From the NCBI GenBank assembly GCA_032718475.1, contig JAUCBJ010000171.1, positions 1 through 43,839 on the forward strand: DNA of 43,839 bases, written 5' to 3'. The stretch is from Nemertoderma westbladi (lineage: Eukaryota; Animalia; Xenacoelomorpha). Of the stretch, positions 12,281 to 43,839 are shown one piece after another. Position numbers and translations under genes: made by a program. The notes under the pieces are model-generated. The model had not been told where the DNA came from. It was given only the letters and a program-made list of their open reading frames with translations, and made no database searches. Every line of letters begins with the position of its first letter. The stretch's first letter is position 1.

Positions 12281-12376
12281 ATAAAGTGTTATATTTAAAA
12301 GGACTAATTATTCCGAACTTGCAAAACTTTATAAAGTGGGAAGGAAAGAGTGGACGGAAGACTCGTGAGCCTTTCT

Positions 12377-15205: not shown

Positions 15206-15940
15206 ATGCATAAACTCAAAGATTAGTTAACTGAGGAATGATTCTTAGTTCAAATACATACTTCTATGCTTCCCACTACTATCACCCTAAAGCATTAATA
15301 ACACTCCTGCCCTCCAGGTTTCATACATTACATTAATACAGTGCACTAATGTAATCGCCATTATAATGGTAAAGTATGGGACAATTTTCAATTGGCCACC
15401 ATGATATTTCTGAGGGAGTAGATTATGAAACTACGGGTAATTGTTTCTTAAGATGAAGCAACACAAACGTGCTTTGCATTCCACTGGGTGATTGGGCTGA
15501 GTTAGATTACTTCTCTGTGTATAAATTAAAATTTCACTATTTTTTGGTAAAGTATGGGACTTTACATGCATAAACCCAAAGATTTCTTGACAGAGGAATG
15601 ATCTCAGATCAAATATAGACTCCTATTCTTACGGCCGACTATGACCTTAGAGTATTATAACACTCATGGCTTCACATATTACATTAATACAGTGCACTAA
15701 TATAATCGCCATTTTGATGGTAAAGTATGGGACAATTTTCAATTGGCCGCCATGATATTTCTGAGGGAGTGAAGATGAAACTAATTGTTTTATACGATGA
15801 CGCAACACAAACGTGCTTTGCATTCCACTGGGTGATTAGGCTGAGTTACATCTCTGTGAATAAACTAAAAATTTCACTATTTTTGGTAAAGTATGGGACA
15901 TCACAAGATTAACTTTATCGATTTCATTACAGAGGAATGA
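15206..15940. repeat. ~360-bp tandem duplication (2 copies plus a trace of a third)
   Basis: ATGCATAAAC(T/C)CAAAGATT at 15206 and 15566; shared TTACATTAATACAGTGCACTAAT, GGTAAAGTATGGGACAATTTTCAATTGGCC and GCAACACAAACGTGCTTTGCATTCCACTGGGTGATT. Confidence 0.9.
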
Positions 15941-17531: not shown

Positions 17532-17547
17532 TTTAGCTTGAAGTTAG

Positions 17548-18106
17548 TGTTAGCTTATTCAATTCCGCTAACACAAACCCATAAAGTAAGCCGTTAAGCA
17601 ATATTGGGGGCCACGAGGTTGATTACCCAATCTCGTGCCACCCCAATAAAATGGGAAGGAGAAACACACAATAAGGGTCAGGGGCCACACCCCTGACCGA
17701 GAGAGAATAGTAGGAGTGAAGGGAAACACTCCAAAGGGCGCCAACAGAGACATTAGCCAATGGGAGGGAGGCACCGGCTAGGTAGAGTAACAAGGCCATC
17801 CCGTGCAATATAACCAGTTTACAGTAATCAGTTATCTCAGTTATCTCATTGTGTTGGTCGGTTTAGCTAGGGTAGAACCGGTACTTCAATTACCGTCGTC
17901 GTACCTACCGTATCTGAGACTTCATCATTGTATATTCCAGTTACCTCATTTATACCATTATCTATTGAACTTATGCAACTATACTATTATACCTGAGAAC
18001 TTTGTACAGCGAACAATAACTCTTTACCTTTTACACACACACGGCGGGGACGCGACGCGTGAATCGAAAACCGGATAAACCGGGATCCTCTCTGGATCCC
18101 GTCACA
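17548..18106 (+). repeat. 5' LTR of element B
   Basis: TGTTAGC...CGTCACA; matches 31112-31670 except at 17567, 17785, 17799 and 17993. CCAAT 17757, TATAA 17809, TCAGTT 17828 and 17837, 8-bp hairpin CGGGATCC/GGATCCCG 18081-18101. Confidence 0.98.
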
Positions 18107-18417
18107 GTAATTGAAACCTAGCAGCTACCCTAATAGTAATTGAAGTCTAGAACTCCAACCATACCGATCTAAAGAGGAGATGAGTGACGTAACGCCAACG
18201 CGGACCCCGGAGGAAGAACCAACGATCTGCGAGGCCGTAACCAGACGGTATAGGCCCACGACGCCGGACCCATCGGTAATGGGTCATCCGGCAGATCAGG
18301 ATGAAGGGGGCCGTCTGGAGCCAGAGATCGAGCCGAGAGGAGCGGGAGCCGAGTTGGGAGAAGGAGAGGGCGAGAGGGACGGAGAAGAAGACGAGTCGAC
18401 ACGGAACGAGGGTCGAC

Positions 18418-18639
18418 GTACCGATGTCGCCGGCCAGCCACAGGCCGAGGGCGACGAACGGCCCACCGAAACGGCGACGGTGGGGCCGACGGTATGATGC
18501 CGGACCCGGAGAGATGGGGGAGATGTCGGTACCGATGTTGCCGGCCAGCCACAGGCCGAGGGCGACGAACGGCCCACCGGAACGGCGACAGTGGGGCCGC
18601 CGGTACGACGTCGGACCCGGAGAGACGGAGGAGAGGTCG
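18418..18639 (+). repeat. 111-bp (37-codon) tandem duplication in gag
   Basis: GTACCGATGT(C/T)GCCGGCCAGCCACAGGCCGAGGGCGACGAACGG at 18418 and 18529. Confidence 0.95.
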
Positions 18640-19298
18640 GCAACGAGGACGTCGGGGTTTCTGATCGACTTCGACGGGCCTACAACGCGACCCGGAAGCT
18701 ACTCAAGGAGGCCAAGGAGGGGGCGAAGATAGATGAGGTAAAGTTAACAACAGGACTAGGTGAGTCGGATAGACATTTTAATTATCTAATGCGCTTTGGG
18801 CAGAGAGAACTGGCCAAGGAGAGAGCGAGAGGGGTTGCAGAGGAACTGTGTGATTTATGGCGGTGTAGGGGTATGCAACCTATTGCAGTGTACGTAGGGC
18901 CATACTTAGCCGATGCCCGGGGTATAAAATTTGTGGGTTGGAGGAGACCTGAGGAGGGTGAATCCGAGGTTGACCCCGAGGATTCGGTCTCGTCGGTTGG
19001 AAGGAATTCCAGTTCCGGGAGGCGGGGGAAAGTTAGTAGATCGGGAGGGCGGAGGGAATCCGTCACAACCGATAAGTCTGCTACATCCTCCGTAAAAGAA
19101 AGACGGGTGAGAGAGATATATGCCGCGTACCATTTCGACCTGATAGCGCAAGGTCAGAGAGAAATAAATAGACGGTTTGAGGAGGGGAGAATGCTGCTGG
19201 ACAAGGAAATGGAACTGATTAGAGAAACCGGAGAGAGGGCCGAAAGGGCCGCGAAAAGCCTTAGGGACTGTGAGGAAATAGGGAGGAAGGAGCAAGAG

Positions 19299-19497
19299 GA
19301 GCGTGAGGCGAGAGAGCAGAGCGAACGCAAGGAGCGTGAGGCGAGAGAGCAGAGCGAACGCAAGGAGCGTGAGGCGAGAGAGGAAAGCGAACGCAAAGAG
19401 CGTGAGGCGGAACGTAAGGAACGTGAGGCGAGAGAGAAAAGTGAACGCAAAGAGCGTGAGACGAGGGAGGAAAGTGAATGCAAAGAGCGTGAGGCGA
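19299..19497 (+). repeat. 33-bp repeats encoding a charged coiled coil (EREAREQSERK)n
   Basis: GAGCGTGAGGCGAGAGAGCAGAGCGAACGCAAG, about 6 copies. Confidence 0.9.
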
Positions 19498-20157
19498 GGC
19501 GAAGGGAGGGAGCTAGGAGAGAGGCGGAATTGGCCAACCAGAACGCACGGGAGTGTCGGGAGAGAATAGCAAGAGAGAAGCTTGAGCGGAAAGAATTGGA
19601 AAAACGCCAAAAGTGAGCTTATAGAGTACAAAGCTAGACACACGTGCTAACTAGAACTGGCGCGGGTAGGGGCATCTGAGAGCGGGACTGGCTCGAATAT
19701 TTTCGAGGAGCCAAGGGCCGTGGATACATTTATTAATACCCCACTTACAGGGACCGCACGACAGACACGAAACTGTTGTGACCATACGGGCGGGGGGGGG
19801 GGGGGGGGTAATAATAATAATACAGTAGACGACGTTATTATTAATAGTACCGTATTAGATAACCCTAACCAAGCCTTTATTGCAGGAAATACTTTACCTA
19901 GTAGCAGTAATTTAAATTTAAATACAAATAATAATTTCAATTTAAACGTGCAAAATAATCCGAATAATAATTTAAATTTAGAAAATAATAATAATTCAAA
20001 TAATTTAAATAATGATCCAAGCCCGAATTTACAAAATAATTTAAATAGTGTAGTCGCGCAAAATAATCCAAATGATTCTGTTTCGAACGAACAAAATAAT
20101 TCCGTTTCTAATATAGGTGCTATTAACGCGAACTCGTCGGACGTGTATAGCCTGACA

Positions 20158-20337
20158 GACGGCGGCCTGGTAGGCCACGTAGTTGGTAGGTAGGAGGTGG
20201 TGGGGTTGAGTCGACCCGACGGCGGCCTGGTAGGCCACGTAGTTAGTAGGCAAGAGGTGGCGGGGTTGAGTCGAGCCGACGGCGGCCTGGTAGGCCATGT
20301 AGTTAGTAGGCAGGGGGTGGCGGGGTTGAGCCAACCC
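20158..20337 (+). repeat. 60-bp x3 repeat in gag (DGGLVGHVVSRQEVAGLSRP)
   Basis: GACGGCGGCCTGGTAGGCCA at 20158, 20218 and 20278. Confidence 0.95.
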
Positions 20338-22644
20338 GGAGTAGGCCCGATCGGCCAAGTACTAGTGGAGGGAGAGGCAGGGGTAAGTGAACCCAGCCGC
20401 AGTGAAAATGTTGTGTCGACTGGAGAGGGGTGTAGAAGAGAAGTAAGAGGTAGCGGTAAAATATGTGGCGAAAGGGGGGGGGGGCTACAGGAGCCCCACA
20501 ACGAGAAGTTGGTGGCGAGAGGGGGGGGGGGGGCAGAGAGTGTCCCACAGGCGTCGGCGGATAATGCGCGGGCCGAATCAGGTAAACCGCAACACCCGGC
20601 GACGGAGAGTAATAGGGGGATTGCGAGTATCCCCAGCGGCGTGCGATCGACCAGAGAGAGGCAGGTTGACGTCGCGAGAGGGCAGACGAAGCGTCGAGCC
20701 CGATCAGAAGAGGGAAGAAGAACAGTGGGGTTTAACCGGGAGGTCGACGAGAGATCTCAAGAGCGGGAATACTGCACTGAAGGGAGAAGAAGAGAAGACA
20801 GCAGAAGAAGTATTGCCGCGAACGACAGGAGAGTGAGGACGGATAGTGAGCCGTTGGTAGTCGAGATGGAAAGAGAGAGTCGGTGGGGTCGAACTTCGGG
20901 AGATTGCCGTCGTCCCGGAGAGACGCGACCTGACGAGACGCGTTACGCGTCGAGAGAGGGGTACACGATGTACCGGCACGAAGACGAGAATAGTAGAGGG
21001 GGTCGAAGAGAAACTTTCCGACGGGATATACCTACAGATCGAGAGTACGGTAGCTGCGGGGAGGATTATTCGAGAAGAATAAACTTCGATCCCGAGCAAT
21101 ACATACAGACTGTAGGACATACTATAGGCCTTACTGCACATACCATAGGCCATGCTGACAGAAATAATGTAGGCGATAGGATAGCGCGGACAACGGAATT
21201 AAACCCGGAAGTCGCGGAGTACATACCGGCAGGTAGGCCAGAAACTGATAGGCCTATACCGGTACCAGTACAGCAGTATGACTACAGCATGCAAGGACAT
21301 AACATATACCCAGGGGAGGGGGGAATTATTGCGGATAGATGCATGGGCCCCAATATATTAACATCAACCCCAGTACCAAACATACCGGTGGGGGGGGGGG
21401 GGGGACAGGGTGACATTCCCCCATCGCAATATCAACAATATACCCCGATAGGAGCAAGAACAACGAGACCCTTGGATGGAAATAGGTCATGTGACACAGA
21501 AATATGGAGGGGGCCGCTACCCCCAATGATATACCCAAGCCAAAGAAAGGCAGGAAATATGACGGGCGGACCACACCCAACAGGATAAATTATACAACAT
21601 CCATCGAATCCATTGGAAGCGCAGGCGATGGGGATGACCACGTTGATCGATGCATTAAAAACAAGGATCGAATTACCACCCGTGGAACCATTCAAATTCG
21701 ATGGGAGTAGGCCGGAAGAATATCTCCAGTTTCGGCGTATGTATAGTAACGAAATACTAACAAAGAACTTGACACAGGCGGAGTGCCTAAAGTATCTGCA
21801 AGTATACACAGGAGGCCCAGCATACGACATCGTGAGGCAATATCAGGGCATAGAGGGCGGTTTCACGACGGCATGGCGGGCACTGGACAGGGAATACGGG
21901 CACCCGGCCAAGATCATCAGGCAGACCCTGAGAGGCATAACATCGGGTGGCCTACAGGATAATCCCGTTAGCATTAAGACATTCGCGAACAAGGTCGAGA
22001 AGGCGCTAATCGTGTTAAAGACGCTAGACGCGCCATATGAACTCAACGCGTCCAACAACATCACCACGATAGCGCAGGCACTACCGATGTGGTTGCGCAA
22101 CAAGTGGAGGAAAATCGCTTTCTCCACTCGAGATAGGAAGGGTGCGGAACCGGGTTTAGAAGAAATGTCAAGCTTCTTAAACTACGAAGCTGAACTAATA
22201 ACCGACCCAGTCTATAGCGAAGATAGCCTGGGAAAGGGACCGAAGACGGATTACCATAGACCGAAACCAGAGCACAATATGTCAAACGCATTACCGAAGC
22301 TCAGGCAATCACTGCCATATGCAGCAACGCAGGGGACTGCAAGTCCACAGGTAGCCGAAGGAAAGACCACACCATGGAATGGACAGGGGAATAACAACAA
22401 CACGAACAAATATAATCCCAGTACGTCCAGTAGGCCGAACCCAAACAATAAGAATAGTAGGGACTTTGGTACAAACGCAGCTGCGATACGCAATGCACTG
22501 TACAAGGACGGCTACGACCCAAAGAGCAAATGCCAGCTACATACAAATGCGCTTCATCAAACCATGAACTGCAGGTACTGGCAAGCGCTACCCAGGGAAG
22601 ATCAGGTAGAATACGCGGCGAGGAATGAGATCTGCTCATGATGT

Positions 22645-24880
22645 GTGATGAGCGGACATAGAGCTAGGCAATGCAAGGAGACGCCGGTCAAGTTCGGTCA
22701 AAGGAAAGGCCAAACGATAGCAACGAGCACAGTAGGGGCGAGGAAGAGAGGAACGGTGCTACTTGGGGTAGTGCCTATGCGAGTGATTGGAGAAGGCAAT
22801 CGATCAGTAACAACACTAATGCTGGTCGATAGTGGAGCTGCCTTCACACTAGTCGAGGATTGGGTGGCCGAAGAAATAGGATTGAGAACGAGGCCAAGTA
22901 GAATGGCGGTAACAACCATCTCCAGTAAAGATGAGGTCCTGGAGATGAGAACCGGACGGTGCACCATCGCAGCAATAGCACCAGGATGCGATTATGGGGC
23001 GAGCATCGACCCCATCCAAGTGATAGAGTCAATAAACATCAATGCCAGACGGCCAACCAACATCGAGGTCGAACAATATAAATTGCTGGATGATAATCGA
23101 CTTCTCAATCCCAGAGGCGGACGTTAGGAAGGTATCCATCATAGTAGGAATGGACTGCCCAACGGCCCACGAAAGAATGCAAACGGTCTTCGGCGAAGAC
23201 AAGCAGTGTGACCCGGTGGCGATACTGACACCATTCGGGTGGACGCTGAGTGGCCCAATCAAGAGTAAAATACCATTTAGGATGTCGGAGACATCAGGAT
23301 GCATGTTCGCGGGAACTATGCAGGAAATGGGTGACGAGAGAGCAGAGGAGCAGCTTAAGAGACTGCTCAGACAGGATTTTGAAGGATTAAAGGAGATCGG
23401 GGTCGGGACCTCGGTAGAAGACAAGCAGGCTCTACAGAGCGTAGAGGAGTCTATGAGGTGTGATGAGGGGCGGTATACCATAGGGATGGTATGGAAGCTA
23501 CCAAAGCTACCGCTATCCGATAATAGAGGGATGGTACTCACGAGGCTTCGTAAGTTGAAGCAGACACTAAAACGGAGCCCCGAGAAGAATGAGTACATCC
23601 ACAGAACGATTAAGAAGTACGTCGAGAAAGGATGGGCCGTGGAGTTACCGGTCGACGAACCAAACACAGATAGGACGTATTACCTACCACTCCACGTGGC
23701 TTTAGACCTGAAGAAAGGTAAACTGCGGATGGTAGTTGACGCATCGGCAAAGACCAACGGAAAATGCTTAAACGACTATCTACTAGAAGGTCCGAACATA
23801 TACAACTCAGGGATAGAGGTCCTACTTAGATTTAGAGATGGGAAACACGCCTTCACGTGTGACATAGAAGGCATGTTCAACCAAGTCCGTGTAGCGGAGG
23901 AAGATAGCGACAGTCAACGCTTCTTATGGTACAACGGAGACGAAGAACCGTCGATAATACCGACGCACAAGATGGTAGTACAGAACATGGGAGCCAAGTC
24001 GTCTTCATTTACGACGACTATGGCAGTAAGAGATACAGTGAAGGGGAAGGAGGATAGATACAGCACTAGGGCCGTCGATATGATTCGAAGCGGCTTCTAC
24101 GTAGACGACGGAATGGAGTCTGGAAATACGGTTAAGGAGATACTGGACACAGGGCGCGAGGTTCACGACATCCTGAAAGGATCCGGCTTTAACCTGACCA
24201 AATTCCAATCCAGTTCGGAGGAATTTATCAAGGCGATAGGGGACGAGAGACCAGAATCGACTATGGATAATCCCACAACAGCCAAAGGGCAGGACATGGC
24301 AAACAAGAGGACAGAGTCTCAACAGAAGGCACTGGGAATCGTGTGGGACAGAGAGACAGATGAACTGAAGTACCAGCTGAGCCAGGAGGGCACAGACGTC
24401 CACACAAAGAGAGGCTATGTGTCATACATAGCAAGAATATACGATCCCCTAGGTCTAGCATCCCCACTATTAGTCACGGGGAAACAGATACTCAAGAGAG
24501 TATACAAACTGAAGGATGAGTGGGACGTAGAGGTACCAGAGGAGATCAAGAAACAGTGGTGTAAGTGGACAGAAGATTTAGAGAAGATGGGAACATACAA
24601 CATAGCGCGAGTGTATTTTCCGGATGGGAACATGACGAATCTGGACCTACACATGTTCTCCGATGCGTCGTTGGAGGCATACGGAGTGGCACTCTATTTA
24701 GTACAACGAGAGGGGGCTCACAAGCCCAGACTGGCCTTTAGCAAAGCAAAGTCAACGCCGCCAGATTCAGCATCATTTCCCAAACTAGAATTGACAGCTG
24801 CCAGACTAGGAGTTAGGGCCACAGCCTACCTAGTGGATACTATTCCCAACATACACACTACTGGACGGATTCCATGGTAG
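22645..24880 (+). pseudogene. pol: Element B pol: protease, reverse transcriptase, RNase H
   Basis: LMLVDSGAAFTLV, IIVGMD, LTPFGWTLSGP, YYLPLH, KLRMVVDAS, DIEGMFNQV, FYVDDGM, YDPLGLASP, LHMFSDAS, PKLELTAA. Frameshifts near 23090 and near 24860 (HYWTDS continues in the next frame). Confidence 0.95.
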
Positions 24881-26736
24881 TGCTTGGCTGGCTACATAAC
24901 GAAAAGACGAGATACCCTATATTCGTCGCGAATAGGGTGGACGAAATAAGGGCGACCACAGAATTGGAAAGGTGGCACTACTGCCCAACGGACGAGAACC
25001 CAGCGGACTTGTTATCGAGGGGCGTGGCACGCCACACTTTCTTGAAGAAGGAAGTATTCTGGCAACACGGGCCACAGTTTCTGAGCGACAAGGAGGCCTG
25101 GCCGCCGATGAGAAAGGTTGACCCGGGCTCAGGAGAGGTAGTGTCAGAAGGAGAAGAGGGAGATTCAGAGGGAGAAGAGATATACTCCCAGATGGTGAGG
25201 GAGATAAGGGACGTGCAACCTAAACCAGAAGAACTGTGCGATAACCCGACGGATAAACTCCTCAACTACAGCTCTAGTTGGTATAAGACCAAGAAATTAG
25301 TGGCGTACTGGAGAGCCTTCAGGAATTTCCTTGCGGGAGTTGGCAAAGGCAAGAAGATCAGGGCAACAATAGATCTGGAAGAAGCGGCCAAAGCAGTAAT
25401 CCGCTATGAACAACGGAAGAGCTATGGCGACGAGGTGGAACGCGTCGGTAAACAACAGCATCTCCGACGGGATAGCGAGTTGATCACGCTGTCACCACAA
25501 CTTAATGACGACGGGATTCTAGTAATGAATTCTAGGGTGGGATACAACAACAGCATAGTCGTACCACCGAAACCCATCATCATTCCCACAGGATCGCCAA
25601 TAGTCCACCAGATTATCTGGGACTCCCACAAGTCGATATTGCACGGGGGCACCAACCGAACCCTTACGGAGATACGGAGGACCTTTTGGGTCAAGCAGTT
25701 GAGGAAGAAGGTAAAAGCAGTAGTGGGGCAGTGCCAGACCTGCCGACGAGCGAAGAAGGAGCGAGCCATACAAGAGATGGCACCACTACCAGCGAGTAGA
25801 GTAAGACAGCACGACCCACCATTTACACATTGCGGTGTGGACATGTTCGGGCCGATAAAGATCAAGGTGATGCGGCACACGGAGAAACGCTACGGTATTA
25901 TCTTCGTATGTAACAACACGCGGGCGGTAGGGATAGAACTCGCCCAAGATGCAACCGCATCAGCATTTATTAATGCATTAGAAAGGTTCAGAGACCGCAA
26001 AGGTGGGACAATCGCAGTAATGTACTCCGACAGTGGAACCAACTTTGTGGGAGCAGAGAATGAGATGGCAGAGGCCTTGGACATCTTGGAAGGGGAAGAA
26101 GTCAGGGCAGCCATGAGACGACGACAAGTAAAGTGGGAGAGAAGGACGCCGTATGCACCACATACACTAGGATGCATCGAGATACTAGTGGGCAGTTCGA
26201 AGCGTCTCATGACGAAGTTAATGAACACCCACATGGTCACGGAGGACATCTTGAGAACAGTACTTGCGAAGTGCGAGGGTATCATTAATAGCAGACCGCT
26301 ATATCCGGAGAATGATGACCCTGAGTCATTAGATGTGCTGACGCCCAGCCATTTTCTAATGGAAAGGCCAGCGACCATCGATATGCGGGGTGTAGACCCA
26401 GATGACATACACTCCCGCCAGAGTTGGAAGGTCGCTAAAGCGATAAGCGCAGAGTACTGGAGAAGGTGGGTTGAGGAATACCTACCCATGCTTCACAAAA
26501 GAAGCAAGTGGAGGAAGTCGAATAGGGAGTTAAGAGAGGGAGATCTCGTAATCGTTATGGATGATACTATCATCAACAACCAGTGGCGGTTGGCAAGAGT
26601 TGTAGGCACTTACTCCGATGAGGACGGAAGAGTCCGATCGGTAGAAGTGCGGATAGGTGGCAAGATAGGTGCGAAAGACAGAAAACCCTACAGGAGAGCT
26701 GTAGGGAAATGCTGTCTATTAGAAGGGGCACCTTAG
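24874..26736 (+). pseudogene. int: Element B RNase H C-terminus and integrase
   Basis: FVANRV, WHYCPTDENPADLLSRG, HKSILHGG...CQTC, GVDMFGP, YSDSGTNFVGA, EGIINSRPL, LTPSHFL, YWRRWVEEYLP, DGRVRSVEV. Confidence 0.95.
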
Positions 26737-26845
26737 ATCGTTTGTTAGAGAAGAGTTTAGTCGTCCAAGTTTTGGACTGAGGGGGGTGGGATTGAGGGCG
26801 AGACGCCCTTCCCACACATAAAAATAAAAATAAAATGAATAAAAA

Positions 26846-27385
26846 TTAGAGTTAGTTAGTTAGGAGTCAGTTAGAAGGTACGTAGTACCTATAATTAGAA
26901 TTAGTTAGTTAGGAGTCAGTTAGAAGGTACGTAGTACCTAGAGTTAGTTAGTTAGTTAGTTAGGAGTCAGTTATAAGGTACGTAGTACCTAGAGTTAGTT
27001 AGTTAGTTAGTTAGTTAGGAGTCAGTTAGTTAGAGGTGTTAGAGAAGTAGTAAGAGGGTACGTAGTACCGGTGGTTAGTAGAGTTAGAGGTTAGTAAGAG
27101 GGTACGTAGTACCGGTTAGTAAGAGTAGAGCTGGAAGTTAGTAAGAGGGTACGTAGTACCGATAGTTAGTGGAGTTAAGAGTAGTAAGAGGGTACATAGT
27201 ACCATTAGTTAGTGGAGTTAGTTAGAGGGTACGTAGTACCATTAGTGGAGTTAGAGTAAGAGTTAGAGGGTACGTAGTACCGCTAGTTAGGGAGAGAGAG
27301 AGTAAGAGTTAGAGGGTACGTAGTACCGCTAGTTAGTTAGAGGTTAGTAAGAGGATACGTAGTACCGATTAGTAAGAGAGAGAGG
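26846..27385. repeat. Tandem array of 11 GGTACGTAGTACC hairpin motifs in (AGTT/AGAG)-rich spacers
   Basis: Motif starts at about 26877, 26926, 26977, 27057, 27101, 27148, 27191 (variant), 27228, 27269, 27315 and 27354 (variant). Confidence 0.92.
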
Positions 27386-27850
27386 TAGAAGGGTATATAT
27401 AGTATATATATTAGTCAGTAGTTAGTAGCGAGAGGGGGGCATATGAGTACAGTTGGATAGATCGTGTAGGCCACACGACATATACTGCTGTACTGCACAG
27501 GCCCATAGAGTAGGTCAGAATGCGGATTATGGAATAGAATAATCCATAAACAGTAAAGTAATAGAATTAAGTTAAATCAAAATAAATAGAATAAATAGGG
27601 CTAAAATTACAGATTATGGTAACAGCAGGGAAACTATTCTGGAACATACTTAAAGCAACGGACAGAAATTGTAAATTAGGGTACATTTCTTAGCTACAGA
27701 ATTAAGTAATAGAAATTTAGGCTAAAAGGCGTAGTTAGATAGGAAATAGGCCATTCTCGAACTGTGCAGACCATCAGAAACTAATCACTCATCTGTATTG
27801 CGCCTTGGTAAGGCACCACCTCTACAGGTGAGCGAGTGAGAGTGTTCGGA

Positions 27851-30408
27851 ATGGCGGGAAAACTGATCAGAAAGAGAAAGGCGGAGCAAGGAGGAAAGGA
27901 GATACTGGTGGATTTCACCAAGAGGCATCCGGAAGAGAAGACGAGAGGATACTACGAGAGGTTGGAAAAGGGTCACGCGGCACGCAGGACCACTTCCGGG
28001 AGATGCACGAACAGTGGCTGGTCGGGACATACGGGACGCCGTCGCTGGACAACGCGATCTTCCAACACTTCCACTACGTGGTGAAAGGGGACGAGGCGAA
28101 GTTCGGGATTCCGAAGTACCTGAGGGAGTCGCCGAAGAAGGATTGGAAGAGGTTTATAGAGTCCGTCAACAGGGGAGGATATATGATCCTAGACGACGAG
28201 GGAACCATGGAAGACTAGGAGGGTTCGAGACGAGGATCAGCAGGGTCGGCCAGGACCATACTCCTACATTTGGCCGCGCCAAATGGGGACATTTTCTTAT
28301 TCGACCTAGGAACGTATTGGAAAAAGGACGGGCCAAAATTAAACCGGTTGCCGAAAGCGGTGCAAGTCCTGGTAAGAGAGAAGTCGACGACGAAAGTGGG
28401 ATCGGCGATTCATGAGGACGCGGAGAGAATCATCGGTCCGGACGCCACCAACCTCCTGGATATGCAGAAGGTCTTCATGGCTATGACAGCACCAGACGGG
28501 TTGGGAGTAGTCGGGAACACAGGTCAACGCGGAGCGGTGGCAATGGGCCAGCTATTGGGGCTCGTATGCCACAAACCGATGGACTGGGGGAAGTTCAGGG
28601 AGGAATACGGAGCAGAACTAGCGAACTCGCTAAAGTGGGGAGCGAGACCAGGAAGGCAAGAGGTATATCAATTCCGCAGAGGAGCGATAAAGGTATATCA
28701 GAAGCGATATATCCTGCAGGAAGATTGGATAATGATAAGTTTGCTCAACTTATTCATGACCGTGGTTATCGAGAGGGAACCAGCGGCATTTCTGTTATCG
28801 GGATCACCCCTAAGCTACAGGAGAGCCTTTAAGACGGCCTTCGACGGTCTGGTAGACCACCCGGGGCTGAAGGGCGAGTCGGTGTACTACAACAGCCGAC
28901 ATCTGATAGACGGGGAGATAGATACGCCGTATCAGAGATGGGAGCAGCTAGAGACGGATAGACGAGAGGCAAAGCGACTGGAAGAAGTCGCGAGACGGGA
29001 GAGGATAGAAGCAGAGGAGAGGGAGGAGGAGGCCAGGACGCAGAGTTACGGCTTCGAGGAACAGGCAGGCTTAGACGAACTTCGTTGGACTTCATCAGGG
29101 AGTTCGGGGGAGTCTCTAGGGCGAGAACTGGGATGGACGGTGGGATCGCCGAAACAGTCGACGTTGGGGTTGCAAGCGATGCCCATACCAGCGGGCGCCG
29201 AAGGCGACCAACCGCTAAGGAAGTTGAGGGAGCTAGAGGGATGGAGAGCTACGGGCGAGAGCCAAGGCGGGAAGGGACATAGTGGATCCATCGGGATACC
29301 GGGGTTGGAGCCACTGCCAGAGGAGGACGAAGACGACGATGAGTTCGGAGAGATGCCGCCCATCGAGAGGATTGGCCACTCGGACACGGACTGGGTTGGC
29401 GGGAGGGTGGTGACGGCCAGTGGGGCGAGGGCCTTCTGGGATAGACCCGGCAAGCCGGCCTGGGTGCACGAGGAGCCGGCGATGGATTTCGCGGGGAGCA
29501 CTATCAGGTTGGGTGAACAACCGGGGACGGCACCACGGGTAGTATTCGGGGAGACGATGCCCGAGAGGGGCGAGGAGATCGACGTAGACAGGGACACTAA
29601 CGTGCAGAAGTTCGCCTACCAGCGACTCCACAGACCGCGGAGATCGCTTGGGACGAAAGACGACGTGGGGCGGGAGACATTGGTACTCGGTTGCGATTAC
29701 TGTGGGAGACAGACCCACCAGGAAAGGAGCTGTTTGTACCGATTCCAAAAGGGGACCTTTTGTCTCTACTGCCGCGAGTCGAGCCACAGGATGGGGGCGT
29801 GTCCACGGTTGCATAACCGATGTCCGAAGTGTAACTTTCGGGGACACTACGGATGCCAGTGCGACTGGATGGACGACGAAGAGAAGTTCAGAACCTTCGA
29901 GGAGTGGGCCGACGTCGGGGCCATGATGCGCCAGCGCATGAAGGCCCAGGAGTTCAAGTGGGGTTTCTTCCTTATCAATCAGGAGGCTCACTTGGAAATC
30001 ATAAAGCGGAGGTTACCGTTTACCTATCAAGAGGTAGCAACGGCGGCGTCGTATGCCGGAGTGATAAATACACAAAGGTATTTGGACAGGTGGACGCCAC
30101 AGAACCAAGGGGAGTTTAGGGATTTCCTGGCGGAGCACGTGCCGCGGGCAATGAAGATGATCTTATGGGATGCCACCACGGGGAGACAACAGGGCCACTT
30201 GGAGGGGCCACCTGCGAAGCGATATCGGGAGCTGATAACACCAGCACCCAAGGAGCCAACGACCGGGATCAGTAAGGAGGTGGCGGCGAGGGTCCGAAGA
30301 CAGAAAGCGGATCCCAGAGGAGCGGTAGTGACCAGGAAACGACCCAGGGAGGAGGACGGCAAAGGGAAAGACTTGAGGTGGTTCCCAAAGTCAGGGGGGA
30401 TGAACTGA
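27851..30408 (+). pseudogene. Element B extra ORF: DEDDy-like 3'-5' exonuclease + acidic linker + 3 CCHC knuckles + basic tail
   Basis: ORFs 28003-28218 and 28270-30408 are in frame across TAG 28216-28218. Exo I GYMILDDEG (28177-28203), LHLAAPNGDIFLFD, Exo II TTKVGSAIHED, Exo III YILQE (28708-28722). Knuckles at 29692-29862. Start uncertain (ATG 27851 needs a frameshift; alternatively ATG 28003 or splicing). Confidence 0.82.
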
Positions 30409-31073
30409 GACTTCGATGTGGAACGCCTGGAAGGTGCCACGTGAGACGTGCGAACTATTAAGTACAAATTCAAAATGATGCAAATAATTAAATAAGTGCA
30501 ATTTGTATGTACGTACGTAGTAATCAGTAGTTTAGTTATGAAATATATGTTCGAAGTGAGTACTATAGTCATTCAACCTTTCTCAATTAGCTACTGGGAC
30601 TGGGGGGCTAACTGACTATGGTACTATGGACGAGACACTAGACAATTTCACACTTCTTGAGTGCGACGGCACAGGAGGGGGGGGTGAGATTCGTCAGAAG
30701 GGATGAGGTAGTCAAAGAGGGGTCGAGTAAAGGTGATAGTGCGGAGTGCGGAGAGAGTGCGAATGCAATTCAAGTGTGTGGGAGGAATAAGAGGCTGAGT
30801 GAGGGACAGGGAAGTCCGAGAGTTAGAGCGGTAGTGAGGAGAAGTAGAGGAGAGTCAGGGTGAGAACAGAGTGGAGTTAAAGTGGCAAAGTGTTGGGGAA
30901 ACAAAAATCGTGTGAGAGGAGCGCACGATCGGCCCGACATGGGACGCCAGGCAAACCGGGTAGCGATATCATACCCATAGGGGGCGGTCTGGAAAACCGG
31001 CTCTGAAAAATAGTTCCACCCCACACCCGATAATAGATCGGGATCCAGCGGAATTGTAGCGCACTTTAGGTGG

Positions 31074-31111
31074 ATGCTATCTTCTCACCGGGAAGATAGC
31101 ATGGGGGGGAG
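31074..31111 (+). promoter_or_regulatory. Hairpin plus polypurine tract of element B
   Basis: Perfect 11-bp stem ATGCTATCTTC (31074-31084)/GAAGATAGCAT (31092-31102), then GGGGGGGAG directly before the LTR TG. Confidence 0.9.
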
Positions 31112-31670
31112 TGTTAGCTTATTCAATTCCACTAACACAAACCCATAAAGTAAGCCGTTAAGCAATATTGGGGGCCACGAGGTTGATTACCCAATCTCGT
31201 GCCACCCCAATAAAATGGGAAGGAGAAACACACAATAAGGGTCAGGGGCCACACCCCTGACCGAGAGAGAATAGTAGGAGTGAAGGGAAACACTCCAAAG
31301 GGCGCCAACAGAGACATTAGCCAATGGGAGGGAGGCACCGGCTAGGTACAGTAACAAGGCCAACCCGTGCAATATAACCAGTTTACAGTAATCAGTTATC
31401 TCAGTTATCTCATTGTGTTGGTCGGTTTAGCTAGGGTAGAACCGGTACTTCAATTACCGTCGTCGTACCTACCGTATCTGAGACTTCATCATTGTATATT
31501 CCAGTTACCTCATTTATACCATTATCTATTGAACTTATGCAACTATACTATTATACGTGAGAACTTTGTACAGCGAACAATAACTCTTTACCTTTTACAC
31601 ACACACGGCGGGGACGCGACGCGTGAATCGAAAACCGGATAAACCGGGATCCTCTCTGGATCCCGTCACA
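31112..31670 (+). repeat. 3' LTR of element B
   Basis: 555/559 identical to the 5' LTR; followed by TSD GTTAG. Confidence 0.98.
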
Positions 31671-33049
31671 GTTAGATTAATGTAGGGGCAGTACAGATGT
31701 CAATCAGAGAGGTAACACCTGCTTCTTATAATAATAATTTCCCTTAGACACAGCTTAGCAAATGGGAGTCATTGATTGCCGATTGCTAAGCTGCGCCCAA
31801 CTAAAATCACAATAATATATGAAACCACTGATTCACACACAATACCAATACGAATTAAAGAAAGATATTGCATTTATTAACATAAAACAGAGGCATCTAA
31901 GAAAAGCTGTTGCAGGTGTGTAGAACAAGATATTGTGCGTAAAGCGCGATTTAGTGCGCGAGGATATTTTTACGATATTATAAGAAATAAGTAGTATCAC
32001 TAACTATTTACATCATTGTGTGAAAAGCATTACTTTCCAGCGTTATGACCCGCGTCGGAGTATATTAATGTAACGAAAGAGCACAGCGAGGAAGGCTTAC
32101 ATAAATATACGAAGCCTTTGTGCACATACTGAAATCCATAGGGAGGCTACCGGTACCAATTAAATCTTCATTTAAAAAAAGGACTTCAAAATCTTAGTTT
32201 CAGTCCCAAATAAATTTAAAAGTTCATCAACATATGCAACACCAGAAATTGAGGTGTGCAAGTTGGTGAAGATAGAATTGTTTTGATGGTGCGATCTCTT
32301 GGTGAAAATTAATTGCATATCGGTCGGTCTACATCCCTCGTACACAAGGAAATGTGATACGATGAAAATACCATTTTGAATACTGTCTCTCAATTCAAGT
32401 AAGCGAAACATCTAACATTATTTCCGTATGAGAGCAATAATCAGAATTTTCATTTTCTATTAAACGTAATTTTCTATCACATTTATTGCAACGTTATCGA
32501 TTTTTAAATGATTAAATGATTTAGACAAAGAAACATAAACACACAGGATTATGAGAGATTTCACTTTTCAATGAGAAATAACTGTTAGAGTTCGAAAAGA
32601 AGTGTCATTACACACTTAATTAGAACATTAGGAAACGGCTACTGATTAAAAACTGAATATGAATCATTTGTGGTGGAAAAAAATTTACACAACTGTTGTT
32701 GGAATTTCAAAAACTATATAATAATAAAATATATAGGAATTGATGATATTTCACAAATTTTATAACTCTTCTGACAAATTGTTGGTAGACATCCAGCTGT
32801 ATTAGAATATTCCTTTAAATAGTTGAAGTGGTGAACTAATTGAAAATATTTAGGCCCCCTAATTTGTAATTTTGTAAATAATATCCATGAAAAAATACAG
32901 CTCAAGGAATTATGAGAGACCACCAGTTAAATATCAAGACTACCACCAGTTTGATGAGGAATAACAACCAGATTGTCGCAACTGTGAGGGATGCCATGCC
33001 CCAAGAACGTAACTCAATCAACTTCCTGACTGGACAGAAACAACAACAA

Positions 33050-33262
33050 TAATGAGTGAATGTTGGGGGGCGAGTGACGCGGTGAATTAAATATATAATG
33101 TAAATAGGACAATATGATAATGCTCTCCATAGCGAAAAATATCAACCGGCCCTATTGGGGTTCGATTGAAACATAGGTACCGGGTTCGAGCCCCAATAGG
33201 GCCGGTTGATATTTTTCACTATGGAGAGCATTATCATATTGTCCTATTTACATTATATATTG
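33050..33262 (+). mobile_element. 213-bp tRNA-SINE-like insertion containing a 76-bp fold-back
   Basis: Flanked by 14-bp direct repeat AGAAACAACAACAA (33036-33049, 33263-33276). Arms 33090-33165 and 33186-33261 with 2 mismatches. A-box-like GAGTGACGCGGTG and B box GGGTTCGAGCCC. Confidence 0.7.
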
Positions 33263-33769
33263 AGAAACAACAACAAGGTTAAGGCAGAATCACCAACCGA
33301 TCGCCTCAGTAATTGGAAGGCCCACTTTGAAAAGCTCCTCAATAATGACAGGGTATTGCCCGATAACTTCATAGAAGTAAAAGTGTCTGAGTCTGTACTC
33401 CCAGATATTCCCATTGGCGATATCTCTTTTGCTGAAGTGAAGGCTTCTTCAAAGGGCATTAAGACCAATCGTACCAGTGGAGTAGATTGTGTCCCCCCTG
33501 AGGTATTTAAAATATCTGAGTGTTTGAAGCAGAATAGATCTGAAAGATTGAAGAACAGAATTATATTAAATGCATCAGGGATCCCATTGAGAGACTGCTC
33601 CGTGGAAATCAGAAGGATAATTGAAATTCATAATAATTTTGGTTGACTATGTTCTACACCTGTCCTTAGATCATCATAATGATGATGGGGTGATGGTAAC
33701 TCCACCTACTGGCTCCATAGAAGTCGAGGAAATCTTGCTAAGTTCATAACTGATCTAGAATTTGTTGAT

Positions 33770-36464
33770 AGATAGATTTATTTATACTGTACATTATGTA
33801 AAAACAATAACAAATACACCAAACAATGTACCGGTATAAAGGTATTGTCCAACATAACATATAGGATTACCCCTAAAGCTTTGCAGCTTATTTCCAAGGG
33901 GGCCCTTTATGTTACTTGGTTACAAATACAATATTACACTACGCTAACCTAAAACCAATATAAAACGTAATTACACTATGTACATGTACAACTTTACCGA
34001 GAGCGTGACAATGTCCAACTCAACGATATAATGTACACAACAATTTATTATAAAACGTAATTACAGTATAAATAGTAAATAATTAATAAACTAATAACTT
34101 ACTGTACGACTATTGTACCTATTTTTACATTGCACACGGAGATGAGATTTAACTGCAGATTTAAAAGAATGTTGATTATCTAGGTTTTTAATTTCATTTG
34201 GTAGAGCGTTCCAATTTTTAATGCCGTTAAAAAAGAAAGTATCAGATTCGAAGGATTTACAATTCGGGAGGTAGAAGTTTGAAGCACTAGCTCTGGTACT
34301 GTAAGAGTGTGTATCGCGTACTCTGTTGAATTTTTGTTTTAGGTAATTGGGACATTTACCATTATACACTTTATGCACATGGTTACGGCGTAGCTGCTTA
34401 ACTCTACTATCTAAGTTAAGTATAAGTAGTCCAGATTCAGAAAAGTCATCTGGAGTTAGGTGGTGCCTAGGTTTGTAGTCTTTAATAAATCGTACTACTT
34501 TATTCTGAGCTACTTGTAATTTACATTTAAGCTGTTTGGTTAAGCCTTCATACCAAGAAGAGCACGCATAGTCCATGTGACACTGTATTAAAGAAGAGCA
34601 AAGTAACTTGCGGGAGTCGGTATTTAAACTATTTTTATTTCTGTATAGAAACCAAAGCCTACTGTTAACTTTCTTTCGAGAAAATATTTTTCACTGTGTT
34701 TTCTCCTGATAAGCAGTTATCCAATGTGGCGCCTAAATATTTAACTTCCTTTTTATTTTCAATCTTATGTCCATTACTAGTGACTTCAAACTTAGTTACC
34801 TTCTTTAACTTTCTTTTGGAACCAAACAAAATACTTTCAGTCTTACCGTAGTGAATGGATAGCTTATTATCAACCAACCACTCATTACAGGATTCTAGAA
34901 CTGCACTTAACTTTTGGGAAATATGGATAGGATCTTTATGAGAGAAAATAAAAGCACTGTCGTCGGCATATAAAATGAGTTTAAAATCGGGATCTATACT
35001 ACTTATCATATCATTTACATAGCATACAAAAAGCAGAGGACCTAATATACTACCTTGCGGTACACCACAGGTAATCTCATGTACAGTAGACTGCGATTTG
35101 CTAATGACTACAGTTTGACCTCTGTCTGACAGATAGGACTTGAACCAGTCTATAGAACCTACACCCATCAGGCCTAACTCACCAAGCATAATTTCGTGAT
35201 CTACAGTATCGAAAGCCTTTTGTAGGTCCAACATTACCATACCAGTATATAAACCCTTTGTGTTATTACATCTAATTGTATCAGTTAAGTTAATAAGGCA
35301 GGTGTCTGTAGAATATGATTTACGAAAGCCGGACTGAAGTTCATAGATCAGATTTAGCCTACTAAGATGTGATTCCAGCTGTAGAAAAACAGAACGTTCT
35401 AGAATTTTAGATACAATACTTAAGATACTAACAGGTCTGTTATTACAGGGTTCTACTTTACTATTCTTTTTATACAGAGGAACAACCTTAGCTAATTTCA
35501 GTTCGTCTGGTACTACATTATCTACGATAGAGTAATTAATAATAAAAGTAATAGGCACTTTAAGTACTACAGCACCATCCTTAAGAAAACGGGCAGGTAT
35601 TAGGTCTAGACCGGTACTTTTTGAGGTTGATAGGCTAAGTAGATTTTGAAAAACGAAATCCTCAGAAACGGGTTTTAAAAATAACTTTTCTAAATTTTGT
35701 AACTTTTCTAAATAAAAATTATTTAGAGTTTCGGACCCTATACTATATTTATTACTTGATAACGGTAACTTCTTAACTAAATTAGAAGCAACATTAGTAA
35801 AATAATTATTAAATAAATTACTAACTAGAGTATGATCATGTACCAGCTCACCGTTATCTTGCAGAACAATATTCGATTTAGATTTAAGGTTTTTATAACC
35901 TAAAGATTTTAGGGTAGACCATAGACTTTTAGGATTATCTTTATTCTCACTTATTTTGTTGTACAAATATTCAGATTTCGCTTTTCTTATTTCCCGTTGG
36001 ACAAGGTTTCTATATTTGCAGTAATTTTTATAATCAGCTAAAACACGGTATTTCCTAAATTTATACAAATAGTTATCTCTTTCTCTGATATTACTAAGAA
36101 TACCCGAGGTCATCCAGGGCTCAGTGCGTTGTTTAAGACTAATTTCTTTAATTGGTGCTACAGTATTAAGTGCCTTTAAAAATATATCTTTAAAAACAGT
36201 GTACGCAAGTTTAATGTCAGCGGCCTTAAAACGGGGTTCCCAGTCTGAATTAACTAACAAACTTAAACTGTAATTTTTCATAGACCTAACAGTTACTGTT
36301 TTATGATCCCCGAAAAAAGATTTTTGTGTCTTTCTTGTGCAAAAAACTATAAAATGATCGCTTAGACCTATAGGTAAAACCCCAGATTGAGAAATAATAT
36401 CGGTATTATTACAAAGGATGTGATCTAGTAAAGTAGAAGTTTTACTGGTAATTCTGGTAGAATC
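33770..36464 (-). mobile_element. 5'-truncated CR1/L2-group LINE
   Basis: Ends in an AATAAA/TCTATC-type tail near 33770; 4-bp TGAT at both junctions; carries the ORF2 below. Confidence 0.9.
34091..36464 (-). pseudogene. LINE ORF2: end of APE endonuclease and reverse transcriptase
   Basis: [14 protein letters not shown]...GLSDH; [63 protein letters not shown]; frameshift near 34670; C-terminal DYACSSWY, HSYSTR, WNALP. Confidence 0.93.
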
Positions 36465-37458
36465 TGATGACTTAGGAGTACTCTCAGAATTACTACATGG
36501 AGCCCAACAGCTCCTCAGCTGATTATAACAGGTTGCTTCTAGTGTGAAGATGCGGATAGTATCACGAAAGTCATGGGGGATAGGGAGTTGTGGCGGTACA
36601 ACTTTGTTGACACGCCTTCATAGGATTCTTAATGCACGCTGCATTGGGCTTGCCCATTGTAAATTGCATGGTGGTGACATAATGGTTTTGTTAAGCCGGC
36701 ATAGCATCTCCATGTTCAGTATCAATGCAGCAGGCCGATTATAGTAGTAGTAGTAATATTATGCCCCAAGAAGGACCAACACATGGCAGCGATTGCTTCC
36801 TTCATCTGAGAGGACGGAACCATTTTAGCAGTCATCTGCATGTTCTAAACCAGAACACAGTATTCAAGACCATAACACAGAAGATGATGTAAATAACACA
36901 ATATACTATTCCGAAACGGCTATGGCTCCAATATTTAGTATACAGGTGACGTAATTGCTCATTGGTCTGTTCAGACCGCACACATGATCTACATGATTTC
37001 CCCAGTGGGAAAACTCAAAAGCAGGATTGAAGATTCAAAGTGATTCAAAGTCAAGATCGATAAATAATGGAGTACCCTCAATGGAAATGCTTCGCACAAA
37101 CTACAGCTATATTTCAAATTACCTTGAATCAAATACAAAGGAACCTATTGAGCAGATGACCCAGAATTCAATGGAATAGCAGATATTTTATGGAACACAT
37201 CCAATACTATATTAAACTAAAGAGCACAGAAAAGGCCTGACAAAATGATGCTTGCTAAAGGAAATCAAAAAGTCTTCATGAACGATAAAAAGAATGTACA
37301 GCCATGCAAAATCTTATCAGGGAACCAGGCTTTACTTTGGCAACAACAAACAAATTATAATCTACTATCAATGCACTGACCCAATACCCAATATGGTCAC
37401 AAAATTGATTGGCCAACATATAAAACGAAGTCAGAAATGGAAGCTAATAAATACCAAA

Positions 37459-40050
37459 CTAATTACAATAACCTGGATCAACGCAGTACCGAATACAGTA
37501 TGGACTCCCGTAGAGGAGTACTCGAACTACTGCTGCTCTAAATAATCGGACCTTAAGTTTCCGATTAAATCTCGGTGACTTCCAAATCCTGGAAAGCCTA
37601 TTCAAGGCTGCCCATGCCTTTCCCTTACGTATTCGAAGGTCCTCACCTGACTTCCGGATCCATGATCCCAGGTAACAGAAGTCGTCCACATGCTCAAGCA
37701 TACCATCCTTTGAGCTTATGCTCATCCGATCAGAGACTTGCTGAGGACTTTCAAAGTTAACTGTCAAAATTTTGGTCTTTCTGGAGTTAATAAAAAGACC
37801 AACACTAGAAGCAGCATGTTCTAATGAGCTGAGGAGCCGTTGGGCTCCCTCTAATGATTCTGAGAGTACTCCTAAGTCTAGATCAGTTAGGTACTTGGCA
37901 GGATTTCCTCGACTTCTGGAGCCAGTAGGTGGAGTTATCATCACCCCATCATCATTATGATGATCTAAGGACATGCGTAGAACATAGTCAACCACAATTA
38001 TGAACAAGAATGGTGCAAGTGTGTCTTCCTGAAGGACGCCCCATAACACTTCAAACTATATGTCATCATTATGAGGCTGAGTACACCATCAGCTCATTGA
38101 TCTCATATAAATAAGATAGCACACATATTTTGTGATCCCACTAGCCAAGTGACAAGACAGCCAGGATGATCCTGATGATGATGTGTTGTGATGAATGCAG
38201 GGATGCATTTGACCTAAATCATGAGCTGATCAATGCACTTCTAGAATGTTACTTTATACTGTACCTGGAGTGGAAATGTGTGTCTCCTTGGAGGACGCCC
38301 CATAACACTTCAAATGGTTCTGTGTCACCGTCAACAGTAGACACAAATGTTGTCGAACCATCGTATACTGATCTGATTGCTGCAATAATTTCATCAGGAA
38401 TCCCATATAATGAAAGTATGCTGAACATACGTGAGCGAGAGACTGAATCAAAGGCCTTAAAGAAGTCAACAAAGATAACAACCAGATGTCTGTCTTTCTT
38501 TTTTGATAATTCTTCAATTATCCTTCTAAGTGCCAAAATGGGCTCCATGGTCCCACGACCTTTACGGAACCCATTCTGATTTCCACGGAGCAGTCTCTCA
38601 GTGGGATCCCTGATGCGATTTAATAGAATCCTATTGTATAGCTTTGCATCAATCGAGATCAATGAGATTCCCCAAAAAGAACCAAGAGTGTTAGGTTGCC
38701 CTTCTTGGGAACTGGCACGAACTTATTTGTTTTCATTTCTTGTGGGACTCTTGTTGTTCGGTACATGTCTACTATGATGGGATAGATGAGCTTTAAACAC
38801 TCAGGTATTTTAAAGACCTCATGGGGAACACCATCTACTCCACTGGCACGATTGGTCTTAATGCTCTTTGCAGCAGCCTTCACTTCTGCAAAGGAGATAT
38901 CGCCAATGGGAATATCTGGGAGTACAGACTCAGACACTTTTACTTCTATAAAGTTATCAGGCAATACCCTGTCATTATTGGGGAGCTTTTCAAAGAGGGC
39001 TTTCCAACCATTGAGGCGATCGGCTGGTGATTCAGCCTTAACCTTGGTGGTTGGCTGGCTTTTCCGCCCAGTAAGCAAATTGATTGATTTCCATGCTTGG
39101 GATGATTGCCTGCTGTCGTCAGCATCATTGATGGCATCAACCTGTTGGTTTATTAGCTCCTGTAGATTAACAGAGTACTGCCTGTTCAGGGACCTAGATG
39201 CAGCCTTAACTGCATTCTTGGCTGCTGTAGTCTGTTTGAGTCGGGACTCTTTCTGCACCTTATGAAGGTCATTTCGGCACTTCTGAATTTTGTTGTCAGT
39301 CCAGGGGGCCCTTTTCCTGTTTCGAGGTTATACAGGAACTGTTTCTGCAGCTGCTAACTTACTGCTTATGTAAAGGCAGTATAGCCCTCACAGTGATCTG
39401 CCGCCTCAGAGGCAAGAGCCTCATACCTGTTGCTCAGCTGTAGTGTGAAGCTGGATCTCACACTTGGCTGTTGCAACAGAGAGGACCAGTCATGCTGCGG
39501 CAAGGCAAATTTCGTTGTTCTGCTAGCACGCAGACTAAGTCTTACCTTGGCCACAATAAGGCGGTGATCACTGGAGAAGGGTCGAAGGGTAAATGCATTA
39601 CAGTCTTGTATAGAGCTCCTGTATTTCCTACGAAACAGAATATAGTCTATCTGGGACTTGTGACTACTGGGTCCACTATGAGTCCATAGCTTTCCAGTTC
39701 GCTTCTTGAACTGGGTTCCAGCCGAAAACAATCCATTTCCAGAGATAAAATCCTGAAGATGTACAGAATTTCGGTTAACACTATTGCTATAGACCTAGGT
39801 GATTGAGATGTAGGTGATTGATCAGACTTGCATTAAAGTCTCCCAGGAATGTTAAGAATGCATGCTAATCCACTCCATCAGTAGCTGCTTGTAGATTGTG
39901 GTAGAAATTTTCCACCTCCTCTACAGGGGCAGCACTAGTTGGAGAGTAGCACACAATCAGAACCACCTTAGGAAACTTCTTAGCCAGTCTTCCAGAACAT
40001 GAAAAGTGGCAACGGATGATGCGGTTAGAGATTCGGGACACTGTTAATAG
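37459..40050 (-). mobile_element. Decayed RTE-like LINE (endonuclease + RT fragments)
   Basis: SQIDYIL...SSDHRLI (39366-39731), ASGVDGVP...VPKKGNL (38659-39258), NQNGFRKGR...FVDFFKAFDSV...GVLQGDT (38249-38662), LAPFLFIIVVDY...DFCYLGSWI (37459-38049). Confidence 0.9.
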
Positions 40051-42820: not shown

Positions 42821-42904
42821 TATTACATTAAACTTATTACATTAAACTTATTACATTAAACTTATTACATTAAACTTATTACATTAAACTTATTACATTA
42901 AACT
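42821..42904. repeat. 14-bp minisatellite (TATTACATTAAACT) x6
   Basis: Direct inspection. Confidence 0.95.
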
Positions 42905-43179
42905 GTATATATTATTAGACATTTTATTATCATTTGAAGAGACAGGGGGGGGGGGGGGGGGGAACTCGACGAAAATCCCAATGGACCCGTTTTTTGGCGA
43001 CTAATGGTCGCACCCAGTCGGCAGGTCGCGGCCTATTACAAGCCTTCTTGTCTAATTAACTATATAACTCATCACGTTTTAGGCAATATGATTGGTGTAA
43101 TGCGTATTGCACGGTTAAATAATAATTTCTTAATAAAGTACTAAATGTACTTTATATACTGTTCAGTAATACAATTTAT

Positions 43180-43680: not shown

Positions 43681-43839
43681 TAACACATACACAATAATTC
43701 AAATAGACATTAAATATATAATTAATAGTAAATAGTAATAACTGGCCAACTATTATATTTAGTACGTAGTATACCAATTAACCAATCAAATGCTGTACAT
43801 GATAATGAGGGACAGTAATTAGGGTAGACGCATTGTTAT

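Follow-up and report, generated by a model that had tools for sequence, protein, structure and literature searches.

A DEDDy-type exonuclease is encoded by ORF3 of the rotifer LTR retrotransposons Juno and Vesta, and this ORF3 is common to the Athena/Terminon elements (PMC5408684; related accounts in PMC6431247 and PMC6338049). The accessible part of the rotifer report gives no activity data for this cargo and no sign of selection on it. DEDDy domains are also carried by the Dada DNA transposons (PMC3706591; also related in PMC6431247 and PMC6338049), where the domain is inserted in the transposase and has four canonical catalytic residues. For the BEL/Pao superfamily, env is the sole extra gene mentioned in the available portions of PMC3118150 and PMC554778, and the word 'exonuclease' has 0 occurrences in PMC3118150. 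An exonuclease in BEL/Pao is not reported by title or abstract in the literature searched, Repbase, subscription papers and supplements aside.

Here we describe a nuclease-like gene of this kind in a BEL/Pao element, element B, of the xenacoelomorph Nemertoderma westbladi. The window, that is, the whole stretch of DNA analysed, is 43,839 nt long (contig JAUCBJ010000171.1). Like the rotifer ORF3s (PMC5408684, as far as its accessible text goes), the gene is a separate third reading frame behind pol, with a DEDDy-type fold, here a predicted one, and no transmembrane or env features. Unlike them, it has a BEL/Pao host, and its nuclease is followed by three CCHC knuckles and a further shared motif, the rotifer proteins being compared by description. 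The altered acidic residue is the fourth one here (Y-x3-E), whereas the rotifer paper reports DEED; copies here show a third-position bias, whereas that study, in the part available, is without a selection signal. The element resembles the BEL/Pao (Belpaoviridae) members Tas and Cer7 (PMC554778 and PMC3118150, in their available portions) in its gag-PR-RT-RH-IN order, its Pao-type domains, its 5-bp target-site duplication and an extra gene before the 3' LTR; in contrast to their env in third position, the extra gene is nuclease-like and lacks a transmembrane stretch, and the element reaches 14.1 kb. As in Dada (PMC3706591, in part), a mobile element carries a DEDDy 3'-5' exonuclease, but here as a predicted product of a separate retrotransposon gene. 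Among cellular proteins, Trypanosoma brucei RNase D (TbRND; PDB 7c42, 7c45), EXD2, EXD1, Nibbler and Egalitarian have the DEDDy fold predicted for ORF3, and TbRND also has CCHC knuckles behind the nuclease. These are cellular genes, however, at 12-19% identity, and the likeness to TbRND is one of architecture rather than shown orthology, because the knuckle match reaches only E 0.36.

ORF3 is a resident and likely selected cargo of a BEL/Pao family, and the gene is dead in this copy. A nuclease as ORF3 cargo is already known from rotifers; new are the superfamily, the architecture of nuclease plus knuckles, and the selection signal. The cargo occurs here in two lineages that are 35% identical in integrase and in an abundant family with a codon-position bias; thus its selection, expression and activity are directly testable in one organism.

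Element B and the residency of ORF3

Element B spans 17548-31670 (14,123 nt). Its features given below lie on the plus strand. Two LTRs of 559 nt with TG...CA ends (17548-18106 and 31112-31670) differ by 4 mismatches (555/559), and they are flanked by perfect GTTAG target-site duplications at 17543-17547 and 31671-31675. The 5' LTR holds a candidate core promoter (TATAA at 17809, TCAGT at 17828 and 17837). The leader, 18107-18147, contains two GTAATTGAA motifs, at 18107 and 18136, which are complementary to LTR positions 17883-17893 (11 nt exact) and also donor-like. A tRNA-type primer-binding site after the 5' LTR is usual for LTR elements and is not diagnostic of BEL/Pao; no TGG-type site lies within 53 nt 3' of the 5' LTR of element B. 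The gag region is very long (18180-22641), with a DUF1759 capsid-type domain near 21700-22110. It is followed by an aspartic protease (22642-23127; Asp_protease_2, E 5e-06), a reverse transcriptase (RT) and Pao-type RNase H region (23036-24880; Peptidase_A17, E 1.3e-37), and the RNase H end with the integrase (24817-26736; Integrase_H2C2, E 1e-12; DUF5641, E 1.7e-24). Because this Pfam set, with the Pao-type domains DUF1759, Peptidase_A17 and DUF5641, stands in gag-PR-RT-RH-IN order, we assign the element to BEL/Pao. The Gag of this superfamily has a triple Cys-His box (PMC554778, in its available part); two such boxes are found near 22530-22680, one of them cut by a stop, and no third was seen in this copy. 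Between the pol stop at 26736 and the polypurine tract at 31092-31111 lies ORF3, preceded by a tandem array (26844-27384) of units of about 45-50 nt, in which a short hairpin-like core occurs 11 times.

None of the three genes is intact in this recently inserted copy. Gag and pol together have four stops and three frame changes: gag is interrupted at 18495, 20191, 21586 and 22639 and changes frame near 19616-19651, the protease breaks into the RT frame, and a further break lies near 24853. ORF3 itself is a pseudogene whose start differs from the one first claimed. The first-pass annotation had placed an open reading frame at 28003-30408, but this range is not one open frame: the main frame, 27984-30408, carries an in-frame TAG at 28216-28218 (codon 72 of the claimed range), just behind the first nuclease motif. 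Nor does the claimed start at ATG 28003 hold up, as the position differs in 59% of the depth of run X2, 2% of X1 and 10% of X3. An upstream frame (27812-28084), with ATG 27851 as its start, does not run in step with the main one, the break being near 27983, where other copies have an indel (41% of X2 depth and 20% of X3; loose ends only in X1). Because other copies differ by this indel and at ATG 28003, the family's ORF3 likely starts at ATG 27851, and 27851-27983 would be its 5' end, encoding a basic N-terminus that in this copy is out of frame with the remainder.

The same annotation had argued that the gene is long-resident cargo that moved with the element, and this part of it stands. The position of ORF3 between pol and the polypurine tract and 3' LTR checks out, as do the LTR match and the target-site duplication. 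ORF3 has the purine-rich plus strand of element B (purine fraction 0.62, against 0.60-0.63 in B gag-pol and 0.53-0.56 in element A, the second BEL/Pao copy of the window), and its codon usage correlates with B pol (r=0.67) and not with A pol (-0.21) or a LINE in the window (-0.53); the ORF3 of element A correspondingly follows the style of A (correlation with A pol 0.54). Enclosure by LTRs and target-site duplication, multiple copies, the third-position bias and a homolog in A all agree with residency, and ORF3 shows no termini of its own. A transposon in its own right was considered and rejected, with 0 terminal inverted repeat pairs found in 27400-31111. A direct match of 13/15 exists between 27409 and 30518.

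Other copies were read from contigs of four public DNA runs, which represent at most three samples, one of them possibly the source of the window. The ratio of ORF3 to pol is 0.74, 0.94, 0.84 and 0.77 in the four runs, and ORF3 exceeds the first flank bin 309- to 753-fold in the three runs with flank depth, both being ratios of summed contig depth, which is not copy number. ORF3 is multi-copy at about the level of pol. We infer the linkage of pol and ORF3 in these copies, since no contig spans from one to the other. Among the joints listed (15 of 92), none removes the whole gene, and three are partial deletions.

The stop at 28216 is private to this copy, being absent from 99.5%, 99.4% and 99.8% of the depth in three of three runs. 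For the pattern of variation, 40 of 54 places were listed, and 39 were used after one upstream of ATG 27851 was dropped. Among these, 29 places vary among copies, with 18 at third, 8 at first and 3 at second codon positions (p=0.0014 for an expected share of one third), and in the nuclease core the third position accounts for 8 of 10. Among the places private to this copy, it accounts for only 4/10, as neutral decay predicts. The upstream 44 codons alone give a small sample (third position at 4/8), and among the ORF3 variant rows listed in the contig comparison 8/11 are third-position, the remaining 3 near-private. A bias among copies that is missing from private sites points to a gene maintained in the family and decaying in this copy, and, judged from these codon positions, ORF3 is with good confidence under purifying selection in the family. 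Mobilisation in trans from a dead template was also considered, from an excess of private differences (10 in 620 nt against 4 in 2x559, p=0.007); it is not claimed, because 6/10 of the private changes are of CpG type and the excess is not significant in either stratum (p=0.12 and 0.23).

Several side observations concern the element as a whole. The gag N-terminal extension (18180-21600) exceeds 1000 codons and includes repeats of 111, 60 and 33 nt, a run that resembles a coiled coil and a stretch rich in both Asn and AT; two tested pieces of it gave no Pfam match. The tandem array 26844-27384 is strongly variable in length among copies, and three AATAAA (26823-26843) lie upstream of it, directly 3' of pol. 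G runs resembling the polypurine tract occur at 26779-26790, just after pol, and at 30673-30686 in the 3' spacer, possibly as a relic or a second plus-strand primer site. A 2458-nt contig of run X3 aligns with the right flank from 31670 on but lacks the LTR, like an empty site, and one contig of X2 extends 30 nt from the right flank into the LTR; the insertion of element B may be polymorphic.

Candidate routes of ORF3 expression

Upstream of ORF3, a branch-point-like CTAAT (27781) is followed by an acceptor-like CAG (27825-27827), and ATG 27851 is the first ATG after it, none lying between the acceptor-like AG at 27826-27827 and this start. The ORF3 of element A is preceded by a similar arrangement (CTAAC at 8496, TAG at 8524-8526), so that in both elements a CTAAY and then a YAG precede an ATG-GC start, the YAG by 24-34 nt; A has two short upstream ATGs in between. 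We propose that ORF3 is expressed in the manner of an env gene, with a transcript from the 5' LTR spliced via the acceptor at 27827 to ATG 27851, a model that the sequence motifs make reasonably probable.

It is also possible, with a clearly lower probability, that the resident ORF3 owes its transcript to an internal promoter located within the tandem array or behind it, whether or not a short intron is involved. The first-pass annotation had named a TATA-like run (27394-27410) and a TCAGT (27415) as candidates for this. Both exist and form a weak promoter candidate at 27394-27419, the AATAAA signals stand just after pol, and a strong donor behind the 5' LTR was not identified. Against this, four ATGs lie between TCAGT 27415 and ATG 27851, TCAGT occurs 4 more times inside the array, the spacing from TATA to initiator is about 24 nt, and a few contigs skip 27291-27418 or 27337-27418. 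On these motifs, splicing from the LTR leader seems the better guess.

The ORF3 protein and its counterpart in element A

The ORF3 protein of element B is built as follows. A DEDDy-like 3'-5' exonuclease domain (28170-28782) shows Asp 28192, Glu 28198, Asp 28417, the Trp of LKW at 28636, Tyr 28708 and Glu 28720; behind a charged helical linker come three CX2CX4HX4C zinc knuckles (29692-29862) and then a motif pair FEEWAD ... WGFF (29896-29970), with WEDLAD ... LGFW as its counterpart in element A. An env gene would have a signal peptide and a transmembrane anchor, and ORF3 does not have this pair: no transmembrane stretch or env anchor was found, the highest 19-residue hydropathy being 1.44 in B and 1.39 in A. 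Both ends of the protein have basic runs, which we take to resemble nuclear localisation signals.

The label 'exonuclease' given by the first reading survives on five lines of remote evidence, and for B it finds no counterpart in direct sequence comparison. In the ESM Atlas, PF01612 comes first for B (0.92; 175/256 features; 26 of 30 hits), at a recognition value of 2177, below the 2300 mark; for A, PF01612 clusters reach 0.94-0.95 (24 of 30 hits). For the A protein, DNA polymerase III epsilon is recovered at E 0.0038. Compared with 70 bacterial DEDDy domains, a profile built from A and B gives a weak match, E 0.006 with a probability of 6%; 1 of 100 shuffles does equally well, and the controls (integrase, knuckle, reversed) score far lower. 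When 49 of these 70 domains are aligned with A and B (51 sequences), five columns are invariant, namely both ExoI acids (Asp and Glu), the ExoII Asp, a Lys, and the Trp that precedes ExoIII; ExoI D-x-E and the ExoII Asp are thus present in both proteins. A single-sequence fold of the B domain, unguided, has pLDDT 33. A model guided by this alignment has pLDDT 68 and is partly circular; at the top of its PDB matches stand EXD2, trypanosome RNase D, EXD1, Nibbler and Egalitarian (E 6e-4 to 1e-2, TM 0.33-0.47), with E. coli RNase D behind them (E 0.024), though the bacterial type guided the model. Giant-virus exonucleases are among its matches to viral models (best E 0.002).

Pfam gives no exonuclease (PF01612) match for B ORF3 even at E<=10, and we therefore file the domain as DEDDy-like and not as a PF01612 member. 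NCBIfam and PHROGs give no match for B, and PDB sequences only unrelated rows at E>=0.12. For 28219-29118, no sequence homolog was found at E<=0.001 among 1.84 billion representatives, and word searches of protein collections and the locus searches were also empty. No ORF3 homolog was found in phages, plasmids give 5 rows at E 5, and 16/151 genomes searched have a match at E<=1, the best being 0.038. The pol of the element was not found in viral contigs. Since the large collections covered here yield no homolog of ORF3, repeat and gene annotation probably overlooks genes of this kind. On motifs and the guided model, we consider it very probable that the domain has an exonuclease fold of the WRN/EXD-type DEDDy group.

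Whether this fold cuts RNA is less certain, because in A as well as B the ExoIII motif is Y-x3-E instead of the expected Y-x3-D; in B this Glu is followed one residue on by an Asp, which MAFFT aligns to the family Asp. From the same motifs and model, activity on RNA seems slightly the better bet. Alternatively, the domain would be a pseudo-nuclease, bound to the RNA of the element so as to route or shield it, in the way that Egalitarian and EXD1 use their inactive DEDD folds. The altered fourth acidic residue in both proteins fits this, as do the three knuckles and charged helical linker behind the domain, and EXD1 and Egalitarian (including a complex with I-factor RNA) are among the fold matches of the guided model; inactive DEDD derivatives are also raised in the Discussion of the rotifer paper (PMC5408684, consulted in part). 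We nevertheless find it unlikely, as the remaining three acidic residues are conserved, together with the Tyr, between two proteins of only about 24% identity, no variant at these codons occurs among the 40 of 54 places listed, and the one variant listed for the Glu codon of ExoIII is a transition at the third position.

The homologous ORF3 of element A (8558-12280, plus strand) has about 1240 codons, with stops at 8588, 9674 and 11351. It shares with B the exonuclease motifs, the three knuckles and the motif pair behind them, and has a longer N-terminus of about 450 extra residues; the identity with B is about 24% in both conserved parts. Elsewhere the identity between A and B is 36% in RT/RNase H and 35% in integrase, and neither is nearer to the other than to unrelated BEL/Pao loci. 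The integrase tree covered A, B and 26 metagenome BEL/Pao loci, with 13/39 loci dropped as short. It does not bear out A and B as sister lineages: B groups with locus L004 (97/90), and A is unresolved. As the two are not sisters and their ORF3s nevertheless align at about 24%, the gene would be either old and often lost, or exchanged between lineages. Exchange between lineages has been proposed for the rotifer ORF3s (PMC5408684, in its accessible part). ORF3 profiles found nothing at E<0.1 in the 39 metagenome BEL/Pao integrase loci; this is not absence of ORF3, because most have little sequence downstream. In one of them (L003:2709-3773) a second gag lies about 1 kb after the integrase, in tandem, with no room for ORF3. 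Element A itself (1992-13888) has no matching 5' LTR in the window, and its ORF3 is followed by an AT-rich 18/25-nt array (12341-12950).

Proposed function and competing explanations

We propose that ORF3 is the family's own selected accessory gene, a DEDDy nuclease with three knuckles that is made from a spliced mRNA and trims RNA 3' ends, and we give this reading as a whole a probability of about 0.6. The protein would be made separately, from a spliced subgenomic mRNA; its three zinc knuckles would grip single-stranded RNA, and the DEDDy-like nuclease would then shorten the RNA 3' end. Trimming of RNA 3' ends is the most likely activity because the protein is separate and non-membrane and combines a DEDDy fold with RNA-binding knuckles. 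Among cellular proteins of this fold, Nibbler/Mut-7 and EXD1 function in pathways of small RNAs, and Egalitarian is an RNA carrier. The targets may be small RNAs with which the host silences the element, or the precursors of such RNAs, which is the favoured choice among targets and a tentative one. If small RNAs are indeed its substrate, ORF3 would represent a new type of counter-defence by a transposon.

A bolder version, which we regard as rather doubtful, is that an ancient and so far unrecorded family of zinc-knuckle DEDDy nucleases is common to deeply diverged BEL/Pao lineages, and that these nucleases are anti-silencing enzymes which trim host small guide RNAs and thereby aid a very high copy number. 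If true, a retrotransposon counter-defence would be built on the fold that the host uses to mature piRNA ends.

Less probable still is a role in reverse transcription, in which the nuclease would trim an RNA 3' end as minus-strand primer, or proofread or clean the cDNA ends of an unusually long genome. The 5' LTR is not followed by a TGG tRNA primer site, and in a predicted fold the leader pairs with LTR 17867-17893; this pairing is weak against controls, however, with 13/500 shuffles and 72/463 internal 28-mers as good and a fold z of -1.41. The element, at 14,123 nt, exceeds the usual 4.2-10 kb (PMC3118150, in its available part), and Dada transposons are proposed to use their DEDDy domain on their own ends (PMC3706591, likewise), but BEL/Pao loci with little room after the integrase exist without ORF3, and a separate gene is not co-packaged by fusion.

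That ORF3 is carried along neutrally or was inserted later, without being maintained by the element, is very improbable: the gene is broken in both copies of the window, and the cloned rotifer ORF3s show no departure from neutrality within genomes (PMC5408684, in its accessible part), but gag and pol are equally broken in the same copies, the stop is private to this copy, third positions prevail among the variants of other copies, and the gene lacks termini of its own and has homologs in two lineages with codon usage matching that of the host element.

The reading that we prefer remains that of a likely selected accessory gene whose product would trim RNA. Beyond the two BEL/Pao elements, the window contains a LINE-type RT fragment (34665-36281, minus strand; RVT_1, E 1.7e-34), which is nested (33090-39049) among inverted fragments of another RT-like repeat that are 85-98% complementary. 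Local tandem duplications and satellites lie at 15206-15940, 1-509, 42807-42918 and 43505-43689, with periods of about 345, 281, 14 and 8 nt.
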